A DNA stretch of 64,000 nt from Vicugna vicugna. Its lineage: Eukaryota. The notes beneath the pieces were generated by a model that was not told the origin of the DNA, made no database searches, and worked only from the letters and a program-made list of their open reading frames with translations. The position numbers were made by a program, and so were the translations under genes. This document shows, piece after piece, positions 25,740 to 62,501 of this stretch. Where the stretch lies: contig MU058153.1 of the NCBI GenBank assembly GCA_013265495.1, forward strand, positions 808,001 to 872,000, read 5' to 3'. Numbering within the stretch: the first letter of the stretch is position 1; each line of letters starts with the position of its first letter.

Positions 25740-26119
25740 TGGCTTTGCTGCTACTTCTGATTTGTAAGCATTGGACCAAATTGCTCTTGGAGCCTGTGTT
25801 TGCTTTCTTCCTCAGCGCGCCACCTATGGCCCGAGGCTGACACTCGGTAAGCTTGCCTGCCCAATTTGCAATGCTGTAATTTACATTGTTATTAATGTGA
25901 TGGGCTGGAATCCAAGGAGAAAGGGGATTTACAGCCCTTCCAACCTTTTCAGATTTTCTAATAACCTGAAATACAGACCCTATATTAGAAATAATCATTT
26001 TTCTGTATAGTTCATCTCTGGTGGTGGCTAGACATGTTTTCCAGAGCTGGCTGTTCTTTAGTCATGGGCAAGTGCGTGAGGTTGAAGAATTGTTGAGCTT
26101 TGGAATATATTGTCTAAAA

Positions 26120-27957: not shown

Positions 27958-28216
27958 AGCCAATTGTTAGACTGGGAAAAAGCTTCGTGGGCAGATCCAA
28001 TATATTGCACCTTTAAAATCAATAGTAAAATTGAATACATTACATTAGGGAAATTGGCCACTGAAATAGTCAAGTAGGTACTGAGGGGGCAGTGGGCATG
28101 GGGCAGTGGACATATCTCAGTGGTAGAGCACCTGCTTAGCATGCACGAGGTCCAGGGTTCAATTTACAGAACCTCCATTAAAAAAAATACTTAAAAAAAT
28201 CAAAAAGAAGAAGGCA
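27958..28216 (+). repeat. Left arm of a long-range inverted duplication (flank + SINE)
   Basis: Exact reverse-complement blocks: 27993-28027 with 41626-41660 (35 bp) and 28041-28072 with 41586-41617 (32 bp). Confidence 0.95.
28085..28200 (+). mobile_element. tRNA-Ala-derived SINE (vic-1-like), short form, with a 14-bp tandem duplication at its head
   Basis: GGGGCAGTGGGCAT GGGGCAGTGGACAT ATCTCAGTGGTAGAGCACCTGCTTAGCATGCACGAGGTCCAGGGTTCAA...CCTCCATTAAAAAAAA. Confidence 0.9.
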
Positions 28217-28344
28217 AAACATTTTGCCTGGTCTTAATTTTCTCTCTTCCTACAGTATTTAGTGAGTACCCATTACTAAGCACACACTTAGGCTACCAAA
28301 ATGAACCTAGAACGGTTGATCTTGTGGTAAGCAGCTGTGGTGGG

Positions 28345-28530
28345 CAGAGTCATACATCCAGAGTTCCTGAGTTATGATTTAGATCTGTGAATTGTTAGCT
28401 GTATAAACGTGTCAAGTCATTTAAACTCTAAGCAGCGTTTTCCTCCTGTTTGAAGAATAACCCCTAGGGAGTTTGTTTTGTAGGTTAAATGAAGTAAAAC
28501 CCATAAGTAGTCCTTTGTAATCTCTAAAGC
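28345..28530 (+). mobile_element. MIR SINE
   Basis: TTAGCTGTATAAACGTGTCAAGTCATTTAAACTCT...TGTAGGTTAAATGAAGTAA. Confidence 0.55.
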
Positions 28531-28660
28531 ATTCAGTATTATCTTTCTTATTTAGCAAGGATATTGTAAATACCCACAGTAGTGTAAGCATTATGCTAGT
28601 GCTTGCCATACAGAAATGAGATGACGTGAGCACAACCCAAAGATAATTTATAGTCCAGAA

Positions 28661-29413
28661 TGCTAAAGAAGAGTAGGTTCTTGTCTCGTCACAGAAAGAA
28701 TTCAGAGACGGAACACAAAGGTCAAGAAAGTAAAGTGAGGATTTACAAGTGTTAGTACACTCCTAAGGGGAGAGTGGGCAGACTAGGTGAGTAGCTGCCC
28801 TGAGTTCCTTTGATAAGCTGGTTTTATGGGGGGTAAAATGAATGGGCAGAATACTCACTGGGGAGAGAAGAATTTGGGGCCATATTTCCTGACTGTCACC
28901 TCAGCTCCACCTTCCTGAGGGGAGGAGGAATTTTGTCCGTATTTAGTCTTGATCAGAAGTGTCATGGGGGAGGGTATAGCTCAAGTGGTAGAGTGCATGC
29001 TTAGCGTGCATGAGGTTCTGGGTTCGAGCTCCAGTACCTCTTCTAAGGATAAACAAATAAATAAGCCTAATTACCACCTCCCCCCAAAAAAACTTTAAAA
29101 AACTTTTTAATAAGTGTCATGGCATTGGTGCATGATGTGTACGTCTAACCTGCAAGGCTAATTTTACTGTAATGAGGGCATAATGAGTAAAAGGATTCAT
29201 TCGGATACTGGAAATTCCTGCCTTATCCCACTTTCTTGGTCTGCCTCCAGGACACTTGTCAACCCAAAATGTGTGATTCCTTACCAGTCTGGAGGTTCCT
29301 GCTTTTCTTTGTCTGCCCAAGGACCCCCATTGTTCCCAAGATGGATGGTTTCCTGTAATTTGGCTCGTGGCCACCTTTCTCTGCTCGTATCTTGCTACCT
29401 GCCTGCTCTAACA
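28661..29413 (-). mobile_element. ERV solo LTR (ERV1-like) interrupted by a SINE
   Basis: GGTTCTTGTCTCGTCACAGAAAGAATTCAGAGAC...AGTACACTCC...TGCTACCTGCCTGCTCTAACA with TG...CA termini; TATA-like CCCATAAAA on the minus strand; TSD imperfect. Confidence 0.7.
28968..29111 (+). mobile_element. tRNA-Ala-derived SINE (vic-1-like), long form
   Basis: GGGAGGGTATAGCTCAAGTGGTAGAG...GGGTTCGAG...CCTAATTACCACCTCCCCC. TSD AAGTGTCATGG at 28957-28967 and 29112-29122. Confidence 0.92.
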
Positions 29414-30699
29414 GGAGGGAAAGCAGAATGGTGGCAGTGTGGTTCAATATCAGTAGTGGAGGCTTCTGTAGTCACTGGGGGCCATTGCTTGATCTTTAGC
29501 CTCTGCAGGAAGACTGTGCAAATACCTACCAGTCATTTTCAATAGCATCATCTTCAGGTAGGGAGTCCTTCAGCCCCAAGGAGTCTTGTGAAAGTAATAA
29601 CATCATTTTCCTTAAAAGCTACTTGGTTTGAGTCATACATTGGACAAAGTTCTACATTGGTAATTTATACCAATGTGTCTTACATTCTCTTCAGCAGGCC
29701 TAATTAAAGTGAGATAAGGAAAAAGCAAGGGGATAGTATAGGTTTTCCAAAGTCAGAAAAGTTTTAGGAATGCAAATGCATTTTTAAGTGCATTTAAACC
29801 TAATAGCTGGTGCCATAGATAATGAGAGTTTTAAAATTTAGAAATATGAGAATTTACATACATATATGCATATATATACATATAGCCCCAGAAATGTCTA
29901 TAAACATACATACACACACATACAGACACTTTTTTCTTTTTCTTTTATTCTGATGCCCGTCTTATTCCAAGTATTCTTTGCAAACAGAATTTAAGCTAGA
30001 AATTCACCTTGGAATCATACATGATGATAGAAAACCAGGTCTACTATTTGAAGGGCTTCCCCAAGGGACTAATGGTTTAGCTACTCAATCTACATCTGCT
30101 TGGTGTTTGTGATGGTGTTTGATGGTGACGAAGAGGTTGTGATCGTCACTTCAGCGTGTTCTGTGACTTTTGGTTGGAGAATTACACAGCGTGTTTGGTA
30201 CCGTGAAAAGCTTCCTCCCGCCGTTCTATCTAGGCTTTTGATACAATGAAAGGAGGTCAGTCCCTCAGGGTATCATTGAGGGTTATGATACAGGCCTGAA
30301 CATGATCCAATGCAGTATTTCAGAAGCCTGGAGGATTCCTTTTGAGGCTGCTTTGCACGGAGTGACTCTCCTATTTTCTCCCTGAGGTTCAATATTTCAA
30401 CTCAGTTCTCTTGAGGAATCACTGCACACCTAGCACAGCTCGGCATGCAAAAATAATGAAATGAACACTTTAGAAAGGGTGTCTTACTGTTTTCTGCATA
30501 GCGCTGCCTTGTTTCACTGCTGTGCTTTCCATATTTTAAATTAATGGTATTAATAGCTATTTATTGCAGACATTAATTATGCATGTTTTATATCCTTTGT
30601 GATACATGGTGATTTTAGAAGATGAGTGTTGAGTTGTGAAAATACATACTGTTTTGTTTCTTGGTGTTGTTTCCTTTATGTTCTTTTTCACCTCCTCCA

Positions 30700-31065
30700 G
30701 TAACCCTCCTTCTGTTCATAGCTTGGAAAACCCCTACTTGTTCTCAAGAATCTTTTTTCTCAGGAACCCATTTCAGTCCTTTCTTCCTACCAAGTTTGGG
30801 TGGTATGACCTTCCTCTGTTCCCAGAGCACCCCATCCCTACCAACATCATCGGTTCTTCTCTTTATTCATCACGTTCTTCCCACAAACATAGATTAAGTG
30901 CTTACAATGACCTAGAATATTCTATATTGAAATTACCTGTTTATGGTAGTCTCCCCCACTGTTTTATAAGTGTCTTCCATGCAGGGATCAGGTCTGATTT
31001 ATTTTCTAATCCCTGGGTACCAAACCGATTCTAGGGACAGTAGAGGCTTAACAAATGTTTGCTGT
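30700..31065 (+). mobile_element. LINE-2 3' end
   Basis: CCATGCAGGGATCAGGTCTGATTTATTTT...ACAGTAGAGGCTTAACAAATGTTTGCTG. Confidence 0.65.
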
Positions 31066-31924
31066 ACAGAGTCACTGATAGTCGCAGTGGGGTAGTTTTA
31101 TCAAAGCTAATCTAATTACCAGGGTAAATGAGCCAACGTACTATGTGTTACTATTAAATCATTTGATCGTTATGATTTGTAAGTATAGTTATATTCAAAA
31201 TTATACTCTGTGCTTTCTCTAAATAAGAAGTATGTGTACCGCAGAAAGCTAAAGTTGAAAATGGTAGCAGCCTACATGAAAAGGCTAACGTCAGAGGTCT
31301 CAGACCTGCAGTTGTTGAGAAATATACTCCACAGAATGTGTTTTGCTTGACTGTTTGATAGGCCCACACAGTGTTTTAAAGGACATAAAAGTAGGCAGGT
31401 GCTATGCTTACATAAGCACACAAACAGCTTACCACGGGCTGCCTTGCAAGCTGCATATGCTAAACATGCACTCCGTGTAGGTATTTGAGTTTGGGGCCTC
31501 TACTGTGTGCTTCACAAAGATGCTACCACATACGAACCCTGCCGCTTTGTCAGCACATCTATTCAACTGTGATGTAATTTACTGGTTTGGGCAACATTGT
31601 GCTACCAACAGTAGGCTTTTGTGTCAATTTCACAGATCATTTCCCAGTTAACATCTCTTGAGGATAAGAGAGTTCAGTGGTAAAATATCTCTTAGCAGTG
31701 TATTTCATAAGCACATACATACACACATAAATGCATATACATATACATGTTTGACACTGATTCTTAGAACGTGTTACATTACAAATTTCTCTCATAATCT
31801 TGTGTTTGCTCCAAGTCATCTCTAGTCACATCAGCAGAGGATCTTTTTAATCTCATAATAAGTCAACTTGTATGAAAATAACTTCTTTCAGTTCCAAAGA
31901 GTAAGCAGCACTTAGGTACAGGCA

Positions 31925-32300
31925 CGTGAAAGAGGGAGAAGGCATTCCCAGCAGAAGAGACCACATGAACAAAGATTCAGAACAGTAAAAAGGATTTATT
32001 TGGCCTGTTAGCAATTAGGATGTTGAATGAGGCTGGAGGAGTTGAGGTCCTACCAAGAGACTTTGAATGGCGGGGTCAAGAGTTTGGATTTGGTTCTCTC
32101 GGGGAGCCTTCTGAGTGCGTGCTTTACATGCTAAAAGCAATTCCCATTTCAGAGAAAGAGATGGCAGTACTGTGGAGGGTAAATTAAGGTCAGGTGAGAC
32201 TGGCGTTAAAGGGCCAGACGGAAAGGAATTGCTGTAGCAGGAGGCGGAGTTGATTGTCAGTAGAAGCAGAGCAAATAGATTGAATTTGAGAGACTGTTCC
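31925..32300 (-). mobile_element. LINE-2 fragment
   Basis: GGCATTCCCAGCAGAAGAGACCACATGAACAAAG...AAGAGTTTGGATTT. Confidence 0.6.
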
Positions 32301-32599
32301 TTTGCAGGTAAAACGGGGAGGAGATATAGACATAAAGCATTTTTAAAAATCTATTTTAAAAGAAAACATGTCAAGAGCTCGGCCCCATCTCCTCGCAAGT
32401 GTCTACGGAATTTTTTTGAAAGATAATTAGGTTGGTATTTGGTTTTTTGATAGGACTGAAGTGAGTTCCCAAGGTTGGTTAGACAACACTTCACTATTTA
32501 TATGTTTATCACAAAATGTAATTTATTTAAAAAACAGATGATTCTCTCATTTTAAAGACTGGCATTCCTAAGAGGGATCACCTTTGATTTAAATCGTAT

Positions 32600-32712
32600 G
32601 AATTCGCTTAATCAACAAATAGCATCTCCTCTGTGCTAAGTACGGTTCTAGGCCTTGGGCACACAGCAGTGATTAAGAAAAAATCCTTCTCTCATGCAGC
32701 CTATTTTCTTAG
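32600..32712 (-). mobile_element. LINE-2 3' end
   Basis: TCAACAAATAGCATCTCCTCTGTGCTAAGTACGGTTCTAGGCCTTGGGCACACAGCAGTGA. Confidence 0.65.
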
Positions 32713-33927
32713 ATCAAGATTCTCACTATTAACTTCAAATATGTTTTCTTGGATTTTTAATTAATATTTTAGTTTTTATAGACTGTACGTAGAGAATACC
32801 ACTGCAGTGGTGCTTGAATGCTGGGCAATACCAAGAAAATTTACCTAAATCAAAACTGTTTCAATTCACTCTCAAGAGTGATTGTGAATGAAAGATAAAA
32901 AGGCCAAAGTCCATTATTAAGAGGGAAATGTGAAAAACCCATGTCCCTTAGCATTATGAAAATTGAGTTACCAATGTTTTAATTAATCATACTGAGTTTG
33001 ACTGATTTAAGTCTTATCCTATCTTTAGGAAAATGCTTAGGATTTTCTTATGATTATCTATTTTAATAAAAAAAAGTTGTTTTCCTAAGGGAACATTTTA
33101 ATAAATAAATAAACTCACATTAATTATTTGGAGAATGATGGTGTGTATGCTCATTGTGAACACATGAAAATAATTTAACATTAGAATTATTGTGGTGATT
33201 CAACTCTTTTTTTTCTAACTGTTCTTCGTTTGGTGACCTTATTAGTCGTCTGTGTGGTAGGACATGTGAGTGTGTTATTTCATAACCTTCTGAGTGCTAA
33301 GTTCTGGATTGTTTTTTAATTAGCATTTTAATTGCTCATCAGAGTAATTGAAGACAGAGTGGGAAAATGGAGCATTCGCTAATCCCTTTGGTACCAGTCA
33401 GTGCTAAGTTTTCCCAAGGTCAAGTGCCTTCCAGTGGTACTGACAGAAGCTTGCATTGCCCTGCATTCCCTGACGCGTGGTGTGACGATGCCAGGGCTGG
33501 CATCTTGAAGAATAAGAGATGTTTTTTATTCCTTCTTTCTTCCTGATTCTTTGGTTAATTAAGGAAAAGGGGGAATTGGTCACTTCACAATGAAAAGATA
33601 AGAGACAAATGGAATATTCTCTGTGATCAAGTGTAGGTCATAGTAGAGTAGATGTTCGCCACTTTCGTTGAGAAGTGAACTTACTGGATCCATGCTGAGC
33701 TCTGTGAGCGAGAGAAATCTGACATGATTTATTCTTTATTCACTTTTTAAATAAATTACTGAATGCCTTCGATGTTGCAAACACTGGGTTGACAACAAGC
33801 TAGATACAAGTTCTAATTTTTGGAAAGCTAAAGAGTAATCATTTTTCTTATTGTATAGACCACACTGCCCCGATCTAAAGTGAGTATAAGCAAATGGAAG
33901 ACGCATCTACAAATGGATCCTAGGAGG

Positions 33928-34110
33928 AAGGGCAGCGTAGTGCAGGGGCTGAGTGCCTGGTATGGGAACCAGGATTGCCATCTATTTGCTATTTTATCTC
34001 TTGGTGCCTCATTGATGTTGTGGGGACAAAGGGATTTGTCTCAGAAGAACATTGTGAGGATTAAGTAAATCAATACTTGTAAGTGGTTTAGAATCATAAG
34101 ACATTTTGGT
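33928..34110 (+). mobile_element. MIR SINE
   Basis: GGGCAGCGTAGTGCAGGGG head and TTGTGAGGATTAAGTAAATCAATACTTGTAA tail. Confidence 0.6.
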
Positions 34111-35089
34111 AATATATTTTATTATTTTGAAAAATGAATATAGTATTATTCTCGTGTGGTGACCATAGTATGAAGACCAAGATTTCATGGCAAAATTTTT
34201 GTTGCTGTTATAAAGTAAACATACTTTTCTCAGGCCTGAAAATATGATCCAGGTCATTCTTGCCAATTTAATCTGCTTAAGTAGTCCTTGGCCAGGATGT
34301 GAACACTTTTCTGTCTCATTCATATCTTGTACTCGCCTTCTGGCTAATATTGTCTATATACCTTTACACAGAGCTTGAAAAACCCCAATATGCCAGTAGC
34401 TAAATAGGGCGCAGTTTGGCTTTCAGGAAGTATTATCTACTTTACCAAAGATGGATGATGAGGAAGATAGTCCTGAACGAAAACGGGAGTATTAAAGAAC
34501 TGATCCAAACCTAACTGAAAAAAAATATTAATTGCTTGTCCAATTATACTTATGTCATTCAAGCCAAGCATTTTACCAACTAACAGGGGATAACTGATGA
34601 AAGGCCAGTCAGTCTGGCCTGAATGGCAGACGGTTTGGGGGCAACAGAATCAACTATCTCTGCATCTTTTTTTCTTTTTAATTCCAACTTTTTTTTCTGC
34701 TGTTCAGGCTGCCAATCTCCTCTCCCTACATACAAGCCTAAAAATAAGTGCAGTATTTTTCAGTGTGGATAATCAATAGTCTCTCATTCCTGTGTTAAGT
34801 GTGATTATAACACTTTTAGAAAACTTTACTAATTTTTTTAAAAATTTGTAACATGCAGTCTGAATTAAGTCTGCCTACTATGCAAACACAATTTTAAAAT
34901 ATTTCCCTGGCTCTCTTCTCCAACTTCATCCCTGTTCCTAAGCTCATTGTGTCTAGAAAATGCTGGAGTTGCCCTGTTTAGAATTTCATTCTGTTGAATT
35001 GATAAAACACCTATAGGAATGTTTTCCCAGCATTTACCGTCTCATTATTACGTCTTCACTTAGTTTTCCAACTTTTGTAATTTACAGGT

Positions 35090-35360
35090 ATCACCTTTTA
35101 TCCCATGTAGGTCTTTTACCTTGGATGGATTTTATGTGACATCACTGCCTTTTTTCCTCACTTTGCTCATGTTTTTTTCAGGAACTTGCCCACCTTTGTT
35201 ATTCTTAATTTGAATGTATCACTTTGGGGTGTCATATAAACTGCATCTAGTTGGATGTTGGTTTGCCCACTATGATAATCTTCACCTAAGGACAGGAGAG
35301 TTTCCCCCTATTTAAATTTGTTGATATGGTTGGTGTATTTAGTTTTACATCTGTCGAGTT
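35090..35360 (-). mobile_element. Old L1M internal fragment
   Basis: ATAAACTGCATCTAGTTGGATGTTG...ATAATCTT...TTGATATGGTTGG resembles antisense old L1 near the ORF2 start. Confidence 0.45.
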
Positions 35361-37309
35361 CCAGCTTTCCATCTTCAAGGTCAGTACAAAGCAGAAGCGG
35401 GACTTGCCACCGTGTCTCCTACTGTTCAGAGTGGTTTTCTCTCTGTCTCTTTTTCTTCTGTTTATTTTATCTTTCAAAAAATCAACATGTAATTTAAGTT
35501 GTGTATAATTACACTGGAGAGTGAGGATATATGACTTTGGAATCATCCGTTCCCCCATCCGGATTTTTACATACAGACTCACGAGTCACAGTCATTTCTG
35601 AGAGAAGGTTCACCGGGGCTCACCCCCGACCCAAAGTGACTTCACAGTTTTCCAAGCCTTCTGTAGCGTCTCATTTTTCCACTCTGGCAAAAGAATACTG
35701 TTCTCACTTTGAGGCATGGATTCTGAAATGGATGTTCCTAGGCCATCAAGTTGATGATGGAGAAAGGGTTGCATTTCTGTCTTTAAAGTCCCAATAGAAA
35801 ATCTCTCCAGTTGCTTTGCTAAAGTCAAGTCATCCCCTCCTAACCTTGAAGTGTCCATTATTTTAGACCAGAGCCAGACCAGTGTGACCACTGACGGGTT
35901 ATACCCGTGTACAAAACACATCTTGTCCTCTGATGGAAGGAGGATGTATACTATTATACCTGGAGTTTCCTTTCTCTTGGTGCTAACAAAGGCCTGATGT
36001 CCTGATGCAGCTGTAACTCACATCATGATGTGCCATCCGTGACCTGACGGGTGCTTTGAAATAGAGCCCACGGAGCATCAGGGACCTCTTGCCACCCTCG
36101 GAACACTTGACCTAACTAGCTCAGAGCTCTGCGCAGTGGGCAGTTGTCCTTCCTTACCTGTGATCCGCGTGTTTCCAGGGTACTTGTAATTTTCCTCAGA
36201 TTAGAGGTTTACTTTGCTGTAAGGATAGCAACTTCAGACTCTCAGCACCCAATGTCAAACAGTGTTCATCGCAATAATCTGCTTCTATACATCCTAATTG
36301 TATATGCATTTATATACTTTATATATATTGAGAAATGTGAATTGCTTTCAATTCAGCTGTGTATATACTAATAAAAGTCTAAGCTCATAAAATAAAAGCT
36401 AGTGCAAGTGCTCAGGAAGGCATTCCTGTGGAGAGCTAAGATAACATACAGTGAATATTGACTCAGTCAACGTGGACTTTCTGAGCACACACTGTGTACT
36501 CAGCACTGTAGTGGCACCTGGAGATATTATAAAGAAGAAAAAAGCTGATTTTCTTTCAAACTTTCCAATGGAAAATATTGAGGAAAGTAAGCCTTTTTGA
36601 GTGAATATATGAAACTTTTGTTTAAAAGATTCTATGTTTACGACATGGTATGAGGTCATAGAATTCATTACATAGAGTGGATATGGCACCGTTGTGCATG
36701 GAGAAGGGTGTGGGGAGGGGACCTTTTCTGAAAGAAACAAATTCTGTTTCTTAGGCAGAAAGCAAGGGCTTTAAGGGATAGCCATGGGTATGCACGATGT
36801 GGAAATCATAGTTTCTTTATCTAAATTACAGTGTTATCACTCAGGTCTAAAAAGGAGTTCCTGCAGGGTGTTTCTGGAGGTGAGTTAGAATATCTGGAGT
36901 GGTGATTGCAGGAAAGATTTGAGTTATAGGAGCGATAACTTGAGATTTTGAAATATCAACCTTTTATCAACCAACTCTCAAAAAGTATTAAAATCTTGTA
37001 TTCCCTTAGGGTTTGATAAACTCTTTGAAATATTCCACTCAGCCTCAGCAGTGTTAAAGGTGTCTAGGGTAGGACTTTGTCTTTCTTTTTGCTTACATTA
37101 TAACTGCAGAGAAATAGAGCATTCTAGAACCAGGCTAGAGGTAGCCATGGTAATTGAAATAAGAGAAACTCAAAGGTCAGGCTTTCCTCATTTTTTTGGA
37201 GAATGTCTTCCAAGTAGTACAAGCTGTAGATTAAGAATTGAATTTCATTAATTAGATGCACACACCTACACACACTCACAAACACACAACAGGGAACAAA
37301 CAAAATGGG

Positions 37310-37640
37310 TCTGGTCCTCACAGCTTAAGATGCATGGTGAGGGACAAGTGGTAAACAGTAAGTCAACAGATGTAATTTATATGATTATAATTTGAAATCA
37401 ATGTTACCAAGGAAAAAGGGCAGAGGGCAATGCAAATCAGCCTAATTTATTTTAGGGGATCAGGGGATTCTTTTCAGAGAAAATGACATTTCAGCTGAGC
37501 TTTGATGGATGATTTGAGGATTTTAACCAGGCAGGGAATAGAGGAAAGAAGGTTCCCAGAAGGGAAAACATCCTTGTGAGGCATCCGCGTGGGGGAAGCT
37601 GCCGTGCATTTGAGTAGCTGAAGAAACCCCGTGCAGCCCT
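37310..37640 (-). mobile_element. LINE-2 fragment (continues weakly after the MLT1)
   Basis: GAGAAAATGACATTTCAGCTGAGCTTTGATGGATGA...GGTTCCCAGAAGGGAAAACATCCTTGTGAGGC. Confidence 0.7.
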
Positions 37641-37652
37641 GGGGGCCCCCAA

Positions 37653-38100
37653 GTGTTAGTTCCCTGTGGCTGTCAGAGCAAAGCACAAAAACTGGGTGGC
37701 TTAAAACAATAGAAATTTATTTTCTCCTGTCTCTGGAGGCTGGAAGTAAGAAATGAGGATGTTGGCAGGACCATGTGCTCTCTCCCAGCTTCGGGTATTT
37801 GTCAGCAGTCCTTGGCATTCCTTGGCTTAATCTGCATAACTCCATCTCTGCCTCCGTCTTCCCCCGCGTGTCTGTGTCTTCACATGGCTTCTCTCTGTGT
37901 GTCTGTCTCTGTGTCTCTTTTCTTCTTAGAAAGCCACCAGTCACATTGGAATAAGGGCCCACTCTGCTCCAGAATGCTCTAATCTTAACTTGCATCTTCA
38001 TTACACTTAACAAAGGCCCTATTTCCAAGTAAGATTCCACTCCCAGGTACCAAAAGATGCTTCAACATATCCTTTGGGGAACACAGTTCAACCCCCAGCA
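37653..38100 (-). mobile_element. MLT1C-like MaLR solo LTR
   Basis: AACTGGGTGGCTTAAAACAATAGAAATTTATT...CCTTGGCATTCCTTGGCTT...GGGGAACACAGTTCAACCCCCAGCA. Confidence 0.88.
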
Positions 38101-38197
38101 GCAGGGTCTGTAAACTCTGCTGTGGAGTTATTGTTTTATTGACAAAGGAGAATGGTTTAAGCAGAGGATTAGAGTGAGCTGACTTGCTGTAGACTGT

Positions 38198-38436
38198 GTA
38201 ATTCCATTTCTAGGACATTTTAGAAAGGGCAAAAGGCTAGGGGCAAAAACCAGTGTGGTAGTTGCCAGGGGTTAAGGGGAGGGGTTGGGGACCGACCACA
38301 AAGGAGATCTAGGTGATTCTGGAGATGGATGGAGATATTTTATATCTTGATTGTAATGTAGGTTAGTAAATCTGGATAGACGTGTACGCCTGAAAAGGGA
38401 TATTTTTACTGTGCGTAAGTGGTACCTCAATCAAAC
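38198..38436 (+). mobile_element. Old L1 (L1MC/ME-like) 3' end
   Basis: ATTCCATTTCTAGGACATTTTAGAAAGGGCAAAA...GTTGCCAGGGGTTAAGGGG...TATATCTTGATTGT...TACCTCAATCAAA. Confidence 0.75.
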
Positions 38437-39384
38437 AAGCAGAATGGACTCCGTTCAGACCCTGCTCTGGTGGGCTAGTTGAGACAAGGCTGTTGCTAGA
38501 TTGGGGGGTGGTCTGCTCTTGGCACTCAACTTTCCTGCCTTGCAGAGCCTTCCTTGGGAATCAGCTATGAATTTGTCAGCTCCTTCCCATTGTGACAGCT
38601 TGCTGAAAATAGCTTTTGGTTGCAAGATAGGTGAAGGGAGAGGTTCAGAACACGAGGCGCCTGTCAGAGGAGGGCCTGAGCGGAGGTCAGGGGAGGGGGT
38701 CTTGGTGTCAACAAAAGACGGGACTTGCACTGCTTCCCCAAGGCTTGTCACTACTCGGAATAATTAAGGAGAAGGAAAGCGAAGATGCTGAAGAGGGAAG
38801 TAGGGCCGAATGAAGTGTCGCACTGTCCTGTGTGAATCGAAGGTCACTCTGTTGGGGTGTGTTGAGGGGAAACCAGAGGCCATGGTGGGTGGGTAGAGAT
38901 CCTCTCCCTCTGCCCCAAAACGTTGCCAAGTATTAGCTGCAGAAACCTGCACTCCCTCAGCTGTGCTTTGCAATTTAAATTCCCCAGGAAAGACTCTGTT
39001 GCTGATCTAGAAGTGTTTAATTGACAAAAGAAGAAATTTGCAAAAACCAGGTGCTCTGGAAAAAAATAAATGCCTGTAATTTTTTTCTTGTCATAATCAC
39101 TTCTGTTATTGGTGTATCTTAGTTCAAACAAAGAAATATTTTATAACTTATTTTTGTTAAGCAAAAAATACATTTTTCCCCTATTTGCAGTCTTGTTAGT
39201 AGGAGAAATAATCAACTAGCACGTTTTCAAGCTATTTTATCGCCATTGGTCTCTGGAATTGGCCAAACTCTAATAAATCGTAGAGGGGTAATATTAAACA
39301 CAAGCAATGGAATATCATTTTGCAGTGATTTCTATTAAGAGAAAATATACTATAGATACACCGAAAGTCACTCTAACTCTAGAT

Positions 39385-39570
39385 CTTGGCATAGTGAAAG
39401 TCCAGAGTTTCATCCTAACCCTGTGAATTAGTAGTTACGTGATCTTGTGCACATTCGTATGTTTCTCTGAGATCAGATATCCTCCTCAGCAATATCGTAT
39501 GGAATATACACCTGCACTACCTACTTAGTAAATCTCATACTGAAATTATTCTATGTCGGGTACGTGTGAT
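39385..39570 (+). mobile_element. MIR fragment
   Basis: TTAGTAGTTACGTGATCTTGTGCAC...TTTCTCTGAGATCAGATATCCTC; degenerate. Confidence 0.45.
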
Positions 39571-39599
39571 GTCTGATACTTACTTTTCACTTCATTAAT

Positions 39600-39790
39600 T
39601 CTCATCCCCCTTTGCTTTTCCCCAAGGCACTAACTAGATAGCACATATTACATCTCATTTCTTTGCTCCATCTCTCCACAACAGAATGTAAAACCACGAG
39701 AAGAGTTTGTCTTATTTGATTCTGTAAACTCAATACCTAGGTCAGTGCCTGGTAGGTGACAATAAAGAATTGTACAATTAATGAACAAGT
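39600..39790 (+). mobile_element. LINE-2 3' end
   Basis: AGAATGTAAAACCACGAG...CAATACCTAGGTCAGTGCCTGGTAGGTGACAATAAA. Confidence 0.65.
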
Positions 39791-41451
39791 GATCCTTAGT
39801 AATAATGCAGTTCTCTTCCCTTGGTCAGCAATATGGAAGTTAACAAAGTCTGACGTTTCTCAGCAATGTGGTTTCCTAGCTGTTCCCTGGAGACAATCAA
39901 AGACTTTGCCATAGGTACATGCGAAAATAAAGACTTCACAACCTGAAATTGGATGGAAACTCCTTTCCTTGCCCAGTCAGATGAAAATAACAGAAATCCA
40001 GGGTATCCGTAACAGGGCAGAAGGAGTGAAGCCTAGGAGAGCATCCTGACCCCAGGTTTGTTCCGCTCCTGGACCTCGGACGTTGCCTGACCCTCTAAAA
40101 TGCAGAGATATTCATCAATAATGGAATGGAACATGAGAAAGAACTTTCCTTTATTTTGACTCTAGTTCACCATAAGAAGCAAATGTTCTCAGTGCAAGGC
40201 AGAGTGAAAGGCTCTCTTGATTTTGAATTCTGGCTCAGATATCAACTGATCCTGTCTCTGGAGCTAAAAAAAATAGACAGCTTTATTCATTCATTCCTTT
40301 GATCAACCTAATCTAAAAAAATTCTCTGAGTTGTGTAAGTTTGGCATCGTTGAAAATCCTTCCTGTTCCTTCCAGCATGACCATGTTTTATTGACATGTT
40401 TAATTACACGGTGCCGAATGAAGCTGTTGCTGGAGAATTTTAAGGGGCAAATGTCTCCTCTGGAAGAAAGTCAGTTCAGGGAACAAGATATGTACTCCTG
40501 GTAATTCTCACATCCTTGAAAGAGCTGAGTGATCTGGTAAAGGGAAGCTCTGGATTTAACCCTCTGCTTCTCCAAGATGAAACCTTTGTGTGTTCATTCA
40601 TCATTATTAGCGTGAGCAGACAGAGCAAGGTGTCAACATTCTCAAGGCTGAGCTGGGCTGGCATCCTCTAGGATTCCCCATGGGGACAGTGCTCACATAA
40701 TTCCTTCGGAGCATCTTGTTGTTTTGAAAAGGACAATGTAAAAGGGCTACATACCTATTTGTAGAAAGATCACAAAATGGGGAGACATCTGTTCCCAGGA
40801 ATATTGTTCATCTGTGGTTGGAAAAGTCATCCAGTCCAGCCATGCGCCTCCTTGTTCTTTTTCTTTTCTAGTAGTTACACAGTATATACAATACACTAAT
40901 TTAGAAAGACAGGTTTTCCCCATTCTCAAAGTACTCCTGGTACCAAGGCTTTTTTTCTTCTTCTTCTTCTTCTTTTCTTTCTAAGTAGAGCCACTTTTGA
41001 GTCATCTATATAGTTTTCCAGAAAACATCATCTTCACGCCTACCTAAAGTGATTTGAGATACAGAAATGTGTGAAGTCCTTGTATGATGTTTCCTTATTC
41101 TTTAGGAGAAACTGTCCTGATGTGAATGGTGTGAGTTAATAGTCTCTTTTTTTCTGTACTAAAATATGTGTGTGTGTGTGTTTTTAGCTCTTTTTTCTTT
41201 TTATGTAAATGATTTTCCATCTATTGCTTCTCCTCCTCTCTTTGAAAATGCGGATTTTTTTGGCAGGCCAGCTACAGATTCTTGAATATTTTAAAGAGGA
41301 GGAGACTCAGGTTTCTAGTTCCATTTGAGTAGAACCACTCTAAGGGAATGTTCCAGGAGAAAGAAGAGTGTGTAAGGGTTTTTCATATTATTTTGAGTTC
41401 CATGCCTTGCCCTAGTGAAGAAATACAGATATGACTATTCTGAGTATTTAG

Positions 41452-41697
41452 TGCCTTCTTTTTTTCTCATTAAAAAAAGCTTCTTTTTTAATGGAGGTAC
41501 TGGGAATTGAACCCTGGACCTCTTGCATGCTAAGCAGGTGCTCTACCACTGAGCTATGCCCACTGCCCCCCAGCACCTTCGTAACTGACTATTTCAGTGG
41601 CCAATTTCCCTAATGTATTCAGATGTACTATTGATTTTAAAGGTGCAATATATTGGATCTTCCCACAAAGTTTATTCCCCCGTCTAACACCTTGGCT
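41452..41697 (-). repeat. Right arm of the long-range inverted duplication (flank + SINE)
   Basis: Reverse complement of 27958-28216, with substitutions and small indels. Confidence 0.95.
41459..41571 (-). mobile_element. tRNA-Ala-derived SINE (vic-1-like), short form
   Basis: Minus strand GGGGGGCAGTGGGCATAGCTCAGTGGTAGAGCACCTGCTTAGCATGCAAGAGGTCCAGGGTTCAATTCCCAGTACCTCCATTAAAAAA; TSD-like GAAGGTGCT / GAAGGCACT. Confidence 0.92.
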
Positions 41698-49078: not shown

Positions 49079-49430
49079 CAGTCTCTCAGTCCCTACTCTG
49101 TCCCTAAGGTGATCAGGACATATTATTATAAACGTTTTCCTTCTTACCTCTCACACCAGATAAACATCCTTATGATGCTCATGTTAAACTATTAAATCCA
49201 AACATCACAGCCGGGGGAGATAGGTATCAGTCAGATTCTTCACACTCATTTTGAGTGGTTTCCTGTTATTTGACTGACTCTACAACCCAGAACTCTGCAG
49301 AAAATAAGTAAAGCTTTACCCAAAAAAGTTAAGTTTAACTGATTTCTCTAACACTTTCTCTACATTTTCTAACCTTCTTATAGCATCCATAATAGTTAGG
49401 ATTGTATGGTTAAAACCACATGCAATTTTA

Positions 49431-50297
49431 GTCCCTTGTTGTCACATCATTTGCAAATATTTTCTCCCATTCTGTAGGTTGTCTTTTCATTTTGTTTATG
49501 GTTTCCTTTGCTGTGCAAGAGCTTTGAAGTTTAATTAGGTCCCATTTGTTTATTTTTGCTTTTATTTCCATTACTCAAGGAGCTGGTTTGAAAAAAATAT
49601 TGCTGCAATTTATGGCAAAGAGTCTTCTGCCTATGTTTTCCTCTAGGAGTTTTATAGTATCCAGTCTTCCTTGTAGGTCTTTAATCCACTTTGAGTTTAT
49701 TTTTGTATATGATGTTAAAGAATGCTCTAATTTCATTCTTTTACATGTAGCTGTCCCATTTTCCCAGCACCACTTATTGAAGAGACTGTCTTTTCTCCAT
49801 TGTATATTCTTGCTTTCTTTGTCATAGATTAATTGACCATAAATGTGTGGGTTTATTTCTGGACTTTCTATCCTTTCCATTGATGTATGTGTCTGTTTTT
49901 GTGCCAGCACCATACTTTTTATTTACTGTAGCTTTGTAGTATAGTCTGAAGTCAAGGAGCATGATTCCTCCAGCTCCGTTTTTCTTTCTCAAGATTGTTT
50001 TGGGTGTTTGGAGTCTTTTGTGTTTCCATACAAATTTTAACAGTGCTTGTTCCTGTTCTTTAAAAAATGTCATTCGTTATTTGATGGGGATTGCACTGAA
50101 TCTTTATAGTGCCTTGGGTAGTATGGCCATTTTAGCAATATTGATTTTTTTCAATGCAAGTCTATTTTTCCATCTGTTTGTGTTGTCTTCAGTTTCTTTC
50201 ATCAGTGTCTTACAGTTTTTGGAGTACAGGTCCTTTGCCTCCTTAGGTGGGTTTCCCCTAGGTAGTCTGTTCTTTGTGATGTGATGGTAAATGGGAT
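49431..50297 (-). pseudogene. L1 ORF2 fragment (post-RT region), frameshifted
   Basis: ORF track 49822-50073 ([10 protein letters not shown]...[17 protein letters not shown]) and 49575-49913 are typical ORF2p motifs. Confidence 0.9.
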
Positions 50298-50800
50298 CAA
50301 ACAGCTCATACAGCTTACTATCAGAAAAGCAAAGAACCCAATCAAAAAATGGGCCGAATACCTAAATAGACATTTCTCAGAAGAAGACATCCAGATAGCC
50401 AACAGATACATGAGAAGATGCTCAATATCACTAATTATTAGAGACATGCAAATAAAAACTACAATGAGGTATCACCTAACACCAGTCAGAATGGCTATCA
50501 TTGAAGAGTCTACAAATAATAAATGCTGGAGAGGGTGTGGACAAAAAGGAACCCTCCTACACTGTTGGTGGCAATGTAAATTGGTGCAGCCACTGTGGAG
50601 AACAATATGGAGGTTCTTTAAAAAACTGAAAATAGAGTTACTGTGTGATACAGCAATCCCTCTACTAGGCATATATCAGGGAAAGAAAAAAACTCTAATT
50701 CGAAAAGATACATGCACCCCAATGTTCATTGCAGCGTTATTTACAATAGCCAAGACATAGAAACAATCTAACTGTCCATCGACAGATGAATGGATAAAAA
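50298..50800 (+). pseudogene. L1 ORF2 C-terminal cysteine-rich domain fragment
   Basis: [17 protein letters not shown]...[22 protein letters not shown]...[15 protein letters not shown]. Confidence 0.92.
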
Positions 50801-50814
50801 AAGATGTAATATAC

Positions 50815-50845
<31 letters not shown>

Positions 50846-51429
50846 ATGGAATACTGCTCAGCCATAAAAAAGAATGAAGTAATACCATTTGCAGCAACAT
50901 GGATCGACCAAGAGATCATCATATTAAGTGAAGTGAGTCAGATAGAAAGACAAATGTCATATGATATCACTTATATGTGGAATCTAAAAATAATGGTACA
51001 AATATTATTTACAGACCAACAATAGTCTCATGGACATAGAAAACAAACTACAGTTACCAAAGAGGAAAGGGCAGGGAGGGATAAATTAGGAGTTTGGGGT
51101 TAACAGATGCACATTACTGTAAATAAAATAGATAAACAACAAGGTCCTACTGTATAGTACAAGGAATTATATTCAAATTCTTATAATAACATATAATGGA
51201 AAAGAATCTGAAAAAAATCTGTATTTGTGTATAACTGAATCACTTTGCTATACTCCTGAAACTAATATTGTAAATCAACTACACTTTAATAAAAAAATTA
51301 AATTCCAAAAAACACCCAGCATACAATTTTAATAAGAAGAGAGTCATTGGTTGTATGCAACTCCAGGACTTCATAATTCATACACCTGATTGTCTTCTTA
51401 ATTTGTAAAGAGATGCACTAAGTTATTTT

Positions 51430-61602: not shown

Positions 61603-62501
61603 TTAGAGTAGACCTGTCAATATTTCTTTTAGCATGGGTTTAGTGTTGCTAAACTCTTTAGTTTTTGCTTGTCTGTAAAGTTCTTTATCTCTCCTTCTAT
61701 TCTAAAGGATAGCCTTGCTGGATAGAGTATCCTAGGCTGCATCTTTTTTTCATTCAGGACTTTGAGTGTATCCTGCCACTGCCTTCTGGCCTGTAGTGTC
61801 TGTGTAGAGAAATCAGCTGAGAGCCTTATGGGGATTCCCTTGTAACTCACTCTTTGTTTTTCTCTTGCTGCCTTTAGGACCATTGCTTTATCCTTGACTC
61901 TGACCATCTTGATTATGATATGTCTTGATGTGGGTCTATTTGGGTTCTTCCTGTTTGGGACCCTCTGAGCCTCCTGTACTTGGATATCTGATTCCTTTAG
62001 GTTTGGGAAGTTTTCAGTCATGATTTCTTCAAATACCTTTTCAATCCCCTTTGTTCTTTCTTCCCCTTCTGGAACCCCTATTATGCATAGATTGGCATGC
62101 TTTATGTCATCCCATAGGTCCCTTATATTGTTTTCATTGTATTTTATTTGTTTTTCTCTCAGCTGTTCTGATTGGGTGCTTTCTATTGTCCTGTCTTCTA
62201 GGTCACTTATTCATTCCTCTGCATTATCTAGCCTGCTTTGTACAGCCTTTAGGTCAGCTCTCATCTCAGCCAATGAGTTTACTAATTCTACTTGGTTCTT
62301 CTTTATAGCTTCTATTTCATTTTTGACATATTTTATATCTTTAAACACTATTTCTTTTAGTTCCTTCAGTACTTTGGTCAGTCCTTTTTTGAAATCTTGA
62401 TCTAGTAGGCCATCAATGTCTATTTCCTTGATCGTGCTTTCAGGGGATTTCTCTTGATCTTTTAATTGGGAGAGGTTCCTCTGCTTCTTCATATTGCTCA
62501 T
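61603..62501 (-). pseudogene. L1 ORF1p (~299 aa if repaired); one nonsense codon and one 1-bp deletion
   Basis: ORF-track pieces 62211-62501 and 61629-62021 share a frame, linked by AEE*ISDLEDR...LWDDIKHANLCIIGVPEGEE. Motifs ENFPNL, IRLSADFS, QARRQW, YPARLSF. A frameshift at ~61657 restores EFSNTKPMLKEILTGLL*. Confidence 0.93.

Follow-up and report, generated by a model that had tools for sequence, protein, structure and literature searches.

The closest described counterparts of the locus analyzed here are the small inverted duplications of the human genome, for which the sections of the source drawn upon report 277 events with a median size of 284 bp and mostly 1-15 bp of microhomology; they constitute the commonest class of inversion not involving mobile elements, and a replicative origin has been proposed for them (PMC12350158). 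A related process is represented by four-point template-switch events, in which, according to the parts of the report considered, a switch to the opposite strand of the same fork and the subsequent return create an inverted repeat, the point orders 3-1-2-4 and 3-1-4-2 inverting the spacer and the order 1-4-3-2 leaving it uninverted (PMC5453318). These events are short-range in the passages cited, as are the templated insertions of MMBIR, the corresponding tool for which considers templates within 100 bp (PMC8421209). Finally, class 2 templated sequence insertion polymorphisms are presented, in the portion of the source used here, as copied patches without a target-site duplication or poly(A) of their own, derived from distant sources and possibly via RNA (PMC5110952).

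In a 64-kb stretch of Vicugna vicugna DNA (named “the window”), a segment of about 260 bp occurs twice in opposite orientation. One arm is a reverse-complement copy of nearby sequence, non-repeat DNA included, and the locus corresponds to the human small inverted duplications, as those sections describe them, in its size, in the inverted copy being close by and in its ends being without long homology, but differs from them in that the vicugna case is old, presumably fixed and approximately 8% diverged. The arms are of the kind which an opposite-strand switch followed by a return creates in four-point events, although the template would here be located 13 kb away, and the copied patch is without its own target-site duplication or poly(A) as in class 2 templated insertions, although its source is local; an RNA intermediate in the copying of the arm is possible. 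The type of event is a common copying accident of an already known class, and the inverted duplication is real, ordinary and probably neutral. Its features are as follows:

27958 to 28216, plus strand: complete duplicated unit forming the left arm (arm A; BLAST)
27958 to 28071, plus strand: non-repeat flank of arm A, containing a 5-bp tandem duplication, all of the 35-bp exact block and the greater part of the 32-bp one (alignment)
28072 to 28082, plus strand: 5’ target-site half of arm A, 9 of 11 bases identical to the full 3’ half of arm B
28085 to 28207, plus strand: tRNA-derived SINE and A-rich tail of arm A, head tandemly doubled (alignments)
28208 to 28216, plus strand: 3’ target-site half of arm A, 9 of 11 bases, where clear homology stops (alignment)
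28217 to 41449, no strand: 13.2-kb spacer of unique DNA and old repeats, containing an additional SINE at about 28963-29100; its skew has the sign seen outside
41450 to 41460, minus strand: 3’ target-site half of arm B, complete 11 bp (alignment)
41461 to 41571, minus strand: tRNA-derived SINE and tail of arm B, 10-bp hairpin in the tail (Rfam, DNA fold)
41572 to 41582, minus strand: 5’ target-site half of arm B, 8 of 11 bases matching the 3’ half
41586 to 41697, minus strand: non-repeat flank of arm B (BLAST, alignment, nhmmer)
41450 to 41697, minus strand: right arm (arm B), whole unit (alignment)

Self-BLAST of the window aligned 27958-28216 with 41697-41452 at 82.1% over 262 columns (19 gap columns, E 3e-64), giving an arm length of 246-259 bp by BLAST extents. 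On their own, the flank and the 5’ target site (27958-28085) matched the other arm at 86% over 117 columns (E 7e-34), with 100 matches and 9 substitutions in the flank alignment, which bears out the proposal of the first-pass annotation that an inverted duplication of ~250 bp reaches beyond the SINE. No third copy of 27958-28085 was present in the 64 kb (next BLAST match E 0.26), and an nhmmer search of the window with the flank as query returned itself, the other arm and nothing else. Two exact blocks of 35 bp (27993-28027) and 32 bp (28041-28072) lie where that annotation had placed them. In simulations with a difference rate of 10% per column, two such exact runs occurred in 13% of runs (31% at 8% difference, 4.5% at 12% and 0.8% at 15%), and the blocks are therefore expected at this divergence and require no special explanation. 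Selection on the exact blocks was rejected as unnecessary given this simulation.

Rfam at gathering thresholds yielded three tRNA-like matches, every one a SINE (that of arm B being at 41492-41563, 45 bits), and no match in the flank. The SINE bodies of the two arms are 92% alike, the remaining nine of the ten pairs among the window’s five copies being 74-84% alike, and the arms share up to 8 derived positions among the 76 scored. Of three sequence words previously named as diagnostic of this pair, none occurs in full outside the arms, although the copy near 2670 shares one base of the second. Both target-site halves are present in each arm. Around the whole unit, the best score for an outer target-site duplication in both arms was 4, a score of at least 4 being reached by 271 of 300 random pairs, and a second poly(A) beyond the SINE tail was likewise not found, each arm running through its tail into the old target site. 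The two marks of an L1-mediated retro-copy, namely a new target-site duplication and a unit ending in poly(A), are therefore both lacking, which argues for a DNA-type copy; together with the shared unique flank and both target-site halves, this leads to one insertion duplicated as DNA after its arrival, a conclusion which had been advanced earlier and which the shared derived positions also support. The locus provides a clean example of a common mutation class that is hidden by repeat masking, where it appears as two ordinary SINEs. The SINE in both arms is a candidate member of the camelid vic-1 family. It has the structure of a simple tRNA-derived SINE with an A-rich tail and a target-site duplication, and the simple SINE present in camels goes by the name vic-1 (PMC3531059). 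That the duplication is lineage-specific would follow only from membership of this family, and SINE insertion followed by duplication represents a potential two-step phylogenetic marker for camelids.

The core divergence between the arms is ~8%, the remaining difference consisting of local slippage and a hairpin. In arm A, a 14-bp tandem duplication has doubled the SINE head (28086-28099 and 28100-28113) and a 5-bp tandem duplication is located in the flank (28036-28045), while the tail of arm B contains the 10-bp hairpin (41468-41493, DNA fold -6.0 kcal/mol); these changes, as well as the paired target-site halves, were absent from the first-pass annotation. Substitutions are unevenly spread, with 6 in the outer 35 bases and 3 in the next 80, and no local template for those divergent 35 bases was identified when one was sought. 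There are 10 transversions to 4 transitions, an unusual ratio for neutral decay (p 0.004 against an expectation of two-thirds transitions). Several transversions are grouped in short clusters. Private changes within the SINE number 4 in arm A and 1-2 in arm B (one site being ambiguous), and both tandem duplications are in arm A. Because the 3’ target site is complete in arm B and private changes are fewer there, the donor was probably the right arm, as judged from small counts.

The explanation that we consider probable, albeit with considerable room for doubt, is an old, small inverted duplication generated by a template switch, in which the spacer was not turned, the right arm being the original and the left arm its copy. 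The sequence shows that a tRNA-derived SINE, on insertion, produced an 11-bp target-site duplication and then aged. According to this scheme, a nascent strand would subsequently, during replication or break repair, have switched to the opposite strand ~13 kb away, copied ~260 bases comprising flank, SINE, tail and the greater part of the 3’ target site, and gone back to near its point of departure. The orientation of the spacer would be unchanged by this, with the right arm remaining as original and the left arm arising as copy. Both arms then decayed to ~8% substitutions, the left arm having undergone slippage and the right arm having gained a fold-back in its tail. The size fits with small inverted duplications from replication or repair template switching, and the junctions may do so as well. 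With regard to the junctions, a 6-bp word is common to 28216-28221 and 41702-41697, this being the sole overlap above background (0.4-1.8% per join, four joins tried), and the other three joins show at most 3 bp. In addition, the first six bases of the arm (27958-27963) match 28212-28217 at 5 of 6 bases, a weak match noticed post hoc that could be microhomology used at both switches and that competes with the 6-bp word. On the inner side, weak similarity extends ~33 bases beyond the target site (p 0.013-0.03); on the outer side, no similarity was found beyond the arms (p about 0.5), long homology being absent there, and sensitive alignments of the neighbouring kilobases gave nothing but short, off-axis matches. 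A single clean copy does not predict the inner similarity, and the 6-bp overlap is what an inversion would leave.

The arms could accordingly be the scar of a 13.2-kb inversion, a single template-switch or staggered-break event having inverted the spacer and left duplications of 260 bp and 4-6 bp, respectively, at its two breakpoints (3-1-4-2 or 3-1-2-4 in four-point notation). The overlap is positioned exactly at the join which such an event predicts, the contrast between a complete target site in arm B and a truncated one in arm A is equally compatible with this origin, and event types of this kind are described at short range in the portion of the source considered (PMC5453318); the overlap is, however, A-rich and is one of four joins examined, so that about 1.5-7% would be expected by chance. 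Against an inversion, the skew of the spacer is unreversed, being the strongest same-sign skew of the window (T over A +0.044 to +0.047, G over C +0.047 to +0.049), and the spacer halves represent the two highest values among nine window segments. In each of four settings, the summed spacer skew reached the reversed outside value in none of 5000 resamples, in an indirect test where young repeats were masked by eye and old ones left unmasked, and where 1-14 kb has little T/A skew. After an inversion, most of the reversal of an old skew should have persisted, each arm having changed by ~4% in the meantime. Repeat orientation was assessed with ten queries (eight old L1-, MIR- or L2-like pieces, one MaLR-like piece and one younger LTR), of which seven of the eight and the MaLR-like piece were meant as informative; among these, relatives outside the spacer were found for the LTR-like MaLR piece alone, and its orientation agrees with both relatives found (2 of 2), while the younger LTR matched through its SINE alone. 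An inversion of the spacer is therefore unlikely, and the sign of the skew argues against the earlier suggestion that the arms mark inversion breakpoints. An inverted spacer, if proved, would make the locus an example at kilobase scale of a kind of template switch known mainly at short range. By eye, an old L1-like fragment near 38200-38440 seems to lie on the plus strand and most L1 pieces outside on the minus strand, which would tell against an unturned spacer.

Very unlikely, in our estimation, is membership of the unit in a large dispersed set, be it of composite SINEs, of 5’ transductions or of SINEs within an unrecognised camelid repeat, with the 13-kb spacing being fortuitous. Priming in the SINE tail would yield a retro-copy that omits the 3’ target site, which both arms carry, and that gains a target-site duplication and tail of its own, neither of which was seen; nor was there a third copy within the 64 kb. 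Searched for in metagenomes, the exact flank word was found at 0 loci and a loose gapped pattern at 78 loci, of which 0 of 78 genuinely resembled either the arms (best E 0.07) or the window.

Slender credence is likewise given to an older, longer inverted homology between whose arms gene conversion later moved the SINE and flank, or whose core it still homogenises. The inner 33-base similarity, the uneven spread of substitutions and the two long exact blocks are consistent with such a history, but the blocks are expected at this divergence, a p of 0.01-0.03 on one of two sides is marginal, no similarity was found on the outer side, and sensitive alignments of the neighbouring kilobases gave nothing beyond the short, off-axis matches mentioned above.

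Functional roles for the arms had also been put forward. Recurrent inversions resemble the present locus in that inverted repeats bracket a spacer, but in the parts of the report considered the flanking repeats are at least 10 kb in 28 of 40 recurrent human inversions (bioRxiv 10.1101/2021.12.20.472354), whereas the arms here are too short and too diverged (0.26 kb, 82% overall); no exact match between them exceeds 35 bp, and recurrent inversion through them is unlikely. Similarly, opposed arms could pair if transcribed, as do ADAR-edited inverted SINE pairs, and the computed duplex is -339 kcal/mol, but 78.3% of edited Alus had an inverted partner within 1 kb according to the passages cited (PMC4053975), whereas the arms here are 13.2 kb apart. 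Between the arms, no exon was recognised by a crude splice scan, which could miss short or non-coding exons, and no Pfam family was matched by the stop-free frames scanned. These frames were part of a set of 60 (50 of those listed with at least 70 aa at 24-43 kb, five L1-like and five exon candidates), in which L1 ORF1 domains at 61632-62210 alone exceeded the curated cut-offs, two weak matches being below them. Given that no exon was recognised and that the arms are far apart, editing and back-splicing find no support. The plus strand of the spacer is 52.4% G+T, resembling the 52.7% of transcribed DNA (PMC1391917), with replication skew as an alternative cause to transcription. It is conceivable, but hardly to be expected, that the window is in a long plus-strand intron and that the copy is kept as a camelid-specific RNA duplex over 13 kb, edited or affecting splicing of the host gene, with its core matched by gene conversion; the clustered, transversion-rich differences would then be mostly a fossil of error-prone copying and not of age. 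Selection for RNA pairing is not suggested, because the differences are mostly pair-breaking transversions. RNA editing confined to the arms would signify a long-range duplex born of one copying accident. As matters stand, the significance of the duplication is little, nothing showing that it has an effect, and it is most likely without function.

Finally, that the second arm is an artefact of assembly is extremely improbable. The excess of transversions, odd for neutral decay, would speak for it, but a misassembly would have copied near-exactly, and the arms differ by ~8% in their core and by their tandem duplications and hairpin; several of the transversions, moreover, sit in short clusters.

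Comparison of the window with itself by BLAST established that the inverted arm pair claimed in the first-pass annotation is real, with positions 27958-28216 matching 41697-41452 at 82.1% identity over 262 columns (E 3e-64). Each arm begins on its outer side with unique flank (≈114 bases); an 11-bp target site comes next, then a tRNA-derived SINE with an A-rich tail, and a second copy of the target site closes the arm on its inner side. The two arms, whose SINEs face each other, lie as follows:

27958-28216, plus strand: left arm
28072-28082 and 28208-28216, plus strand: 5' and 3' halves of the target site, left arm
41697-41450, minus strand: right arm
41582-41572 and 41460-41450, minus strand: 5' and 3' halves of the target site, right arm

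When the flank alone was used as BLAST query within the window, its sole match was the other arm (E 7e-34; next-best E 0.26), and nhmmer agreed that this is the only other copy there; no relatives of the arms or the window were found in metagenome scans. Exact blocks of 35 and 32 bp are often expected at the divergence of the arms: with the difference rate set to 10%, such blocks arose in 13% of simulations. An 11-base direct repeat on the plus strand lies just inside both arms (28255-28265 and 41444-41454, the second copy overlapping the target site of the right arm) and is probably due to chance.

Five copies of the SINE are present within the window, three being tRNA-like by Rfam; the arm pair is 92% alike, as compared to 74-84% for the other nine pairs. 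At no more than 8 of 76 scored positions, the two arms agree with each other against the base held by most of the remaining three copies, an upper figure, since those copies served as a rough outgroup; private changes number four in the left arm and one in the right, with one site ambiguous. One mismatch of the 5' target-site half against the 3' half is likewise present in both arms, which, together with the jointly derived SINE positions, indicates that the SINE had aged before it was copied. The SINE may be vic-1. In PMC3531059, vic-1 is described as the simple SINE of camels. A third SINE (28963-29100), located in the 13.2-kb spacer between the arms and within an LTR-like element (≈28670-29415), has a perfect 11-bp target-site duplication.

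The 3' target-site half is retained in full (11/11 bases) in the right arm, while the left arm ends after nine. Two tandem duplications are also found in the left arm, one (14 bp) of the SINE head and the other (5 bp) in the flank. Most mismatches in the tail of the right arm would be explained by one fold-back event via a 10-bp hairpin present there, by analogy with a class described in PMC5453318.

Four histories, differing in which junctions are new, were compared: insertion of the left or the right arm into unchanged sequence, and inversion of the spacer with duplication of the unit from either side (template-switch orders 3-1-4-2 or 3-1-2-4). Inversion of the spacer predicts a join at which six bases are indeed common to 28216-28221 and 41702-41697 (background 0.4-1.8% per join), this being the only one of the four ancestral joins with above-background overlap; however, the overlap is A-rich and was found among four tries. 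As each arm has changed by only ≈4% since the duplication, an inverted spacer would be expected to retain a mostly reversed skew, yet the skew of the spacer (T over A about +0.045, G over C about +0.048; masking by eye, old repeats left unmasked) has the same sign as that outside it at 14-60 kb (+0.037 and +0.029), and none of 5000 resamples gave a summed skew as low as the outside value with its sign reversed. Skew was positive in 8 of 9 segments, the two highest being the halves of the spacer, and negative in 1 of 49 overlapping 13.2-kb stretches outside; the first 14 kb of the window display little T/A skew. Among old repeats, whose names (MIR, L2, MaLR, old L1) were assigned by eye rather than from a library, one MaLR-like repeat in the spacer is oriented as both relatives found outside, while one old L1-like piece there appears to run counter to the majority of the outside L1 pieces. 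The same-sign skew was weighed more heavily than the A-rich overlap.

Given the absence of a net inversion and the complete target site on the right, the original is more likely to be the right arm, and the favoured history corresponds to a long-range 1-4-3-2 event in the terms of PMC5453318. A 5/6 match between 27958-27963 and 28212-28217, weak and noticed after the fact, could have served as microhomology for both leaving and returning, which would explain why the copy ends inside the target site. Older homology with gene conversion between the arms is a minor rival: on the inner side, anchored alignment continues weakly for ≈33 bases beyond the target site (p 0.03 relative to random places and 0.013 relative to shuffles), perhaps by chance or as a remnant of such homology, whereas on the outer side it does not continue at all. 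A retro-copy is unlikely, since each arm continues past the tail into the old target site, a second tail is absent from both, and no new target-site duplication above background brackets the unit in either arm; DNA-level copying of the SINE-bearing segment therefore remains, as had been correctly read at first pass.

The arm pair is a further example of a common mutation class. Inverted duplications are the commonest human inversion class outside mobile elements in 1,019 long-read genomes (277 events, median 284 bp, mostly 1-15 bp microhomology, replicative origin proposed; PMC12350158), and the arm pair behaves like these, being an inverted copy of nearby sequence, non-repeat DNA included, and a few hundred bases in size. 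Class 2 templated insertions (PMC5110952) and germline MMBIR insertions (PMC8421209) are similar as described there, but differ in how far away the template lies.

Across flank and SINE body the arms differ by substitution at 14 of 190 sites (K2P 0.078, SE ≈0.019). Slower mammalian rates of 1-2e-9 per year would place the duplication at 20-40 million years. With 2.5e-8 per five-year generation, as applied in PMC8605555, the estimate is about 8 million years; the duplication could fall on either side of the camel-llama split. Transitions account for 4 of the 14 substitutions (p 0.004 against a two-thirds expectation), whereas two L1 control pairs gave transition-to-transversion counts of 46 to 29 and 12 to 10; several of the transversions between the arms are clustered. 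Error-prone copying would account for this pattern and make the event younger than apparent, but the counts are small.

The inverted duplication is probably neutral. Recurrent inversion mediated by the arms, as initially proposed, is unlikely, given that human recurrent inversions mostly have far longer flanking repeats (at least 10 kb in 28 of 40, repeat length being the main driver; bioRxiv 10.1101/2021.12.20.472354). The G+T content of the spacer on the plus strand (52.4%) is near the figure of 52.7% given in PMC1391917 for sense strands in transcribed DNA, and the window may therefore be part of a long intron on the plus strand, replication skew being the alternative. A steady plus-strand G+T excess extends over 14000-60800, where most L1 and MaLR-like pieces are apparently antisense; together these suggest a putative unannotated long plus-strand transcription unit, in which no exons were recognised. 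If transcribed as such an intron, the arms could pair, the computed energy being -339 kcal/mol, while the closest opposed SINE pair apart from them reaches -128; the SINE at 28963-29100, opposed to that of the right arm, could compete (-128 kcal/mol). However, 78.3% of edited Alus have an inverted partner no more than 1 kb away (PMC4053975), whereas the arms are 13.2 kb apart, and a crude splice scan and Pfam searches of a set of frames from between the arms recognised no exon. Selection for pairing is not suggested, as most of the arm differences are transversions, a pattern that such selection would not be expected to leave.

Approximately 2 kb to the left of the left arm, a short GC-rich word beside non-repeat sequence (25810-25960) is a candidate CTCF site by resemblance to the motif. 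A long minus-strand L1 (60790-63800) has ORF1 domains (Pfam) and a GC-rich 5' region, its 3'-end sequence following almost directly after ORF1, and ORF2 seems to be mostly missing. At 49430-51310, an L1 insertion has its 5' part on the minus strand and its 3' part and tail on the plus strand, switching near 50300, which by eye and from reading frames is the pattern of a 5'-inverted L1 from twin priming.
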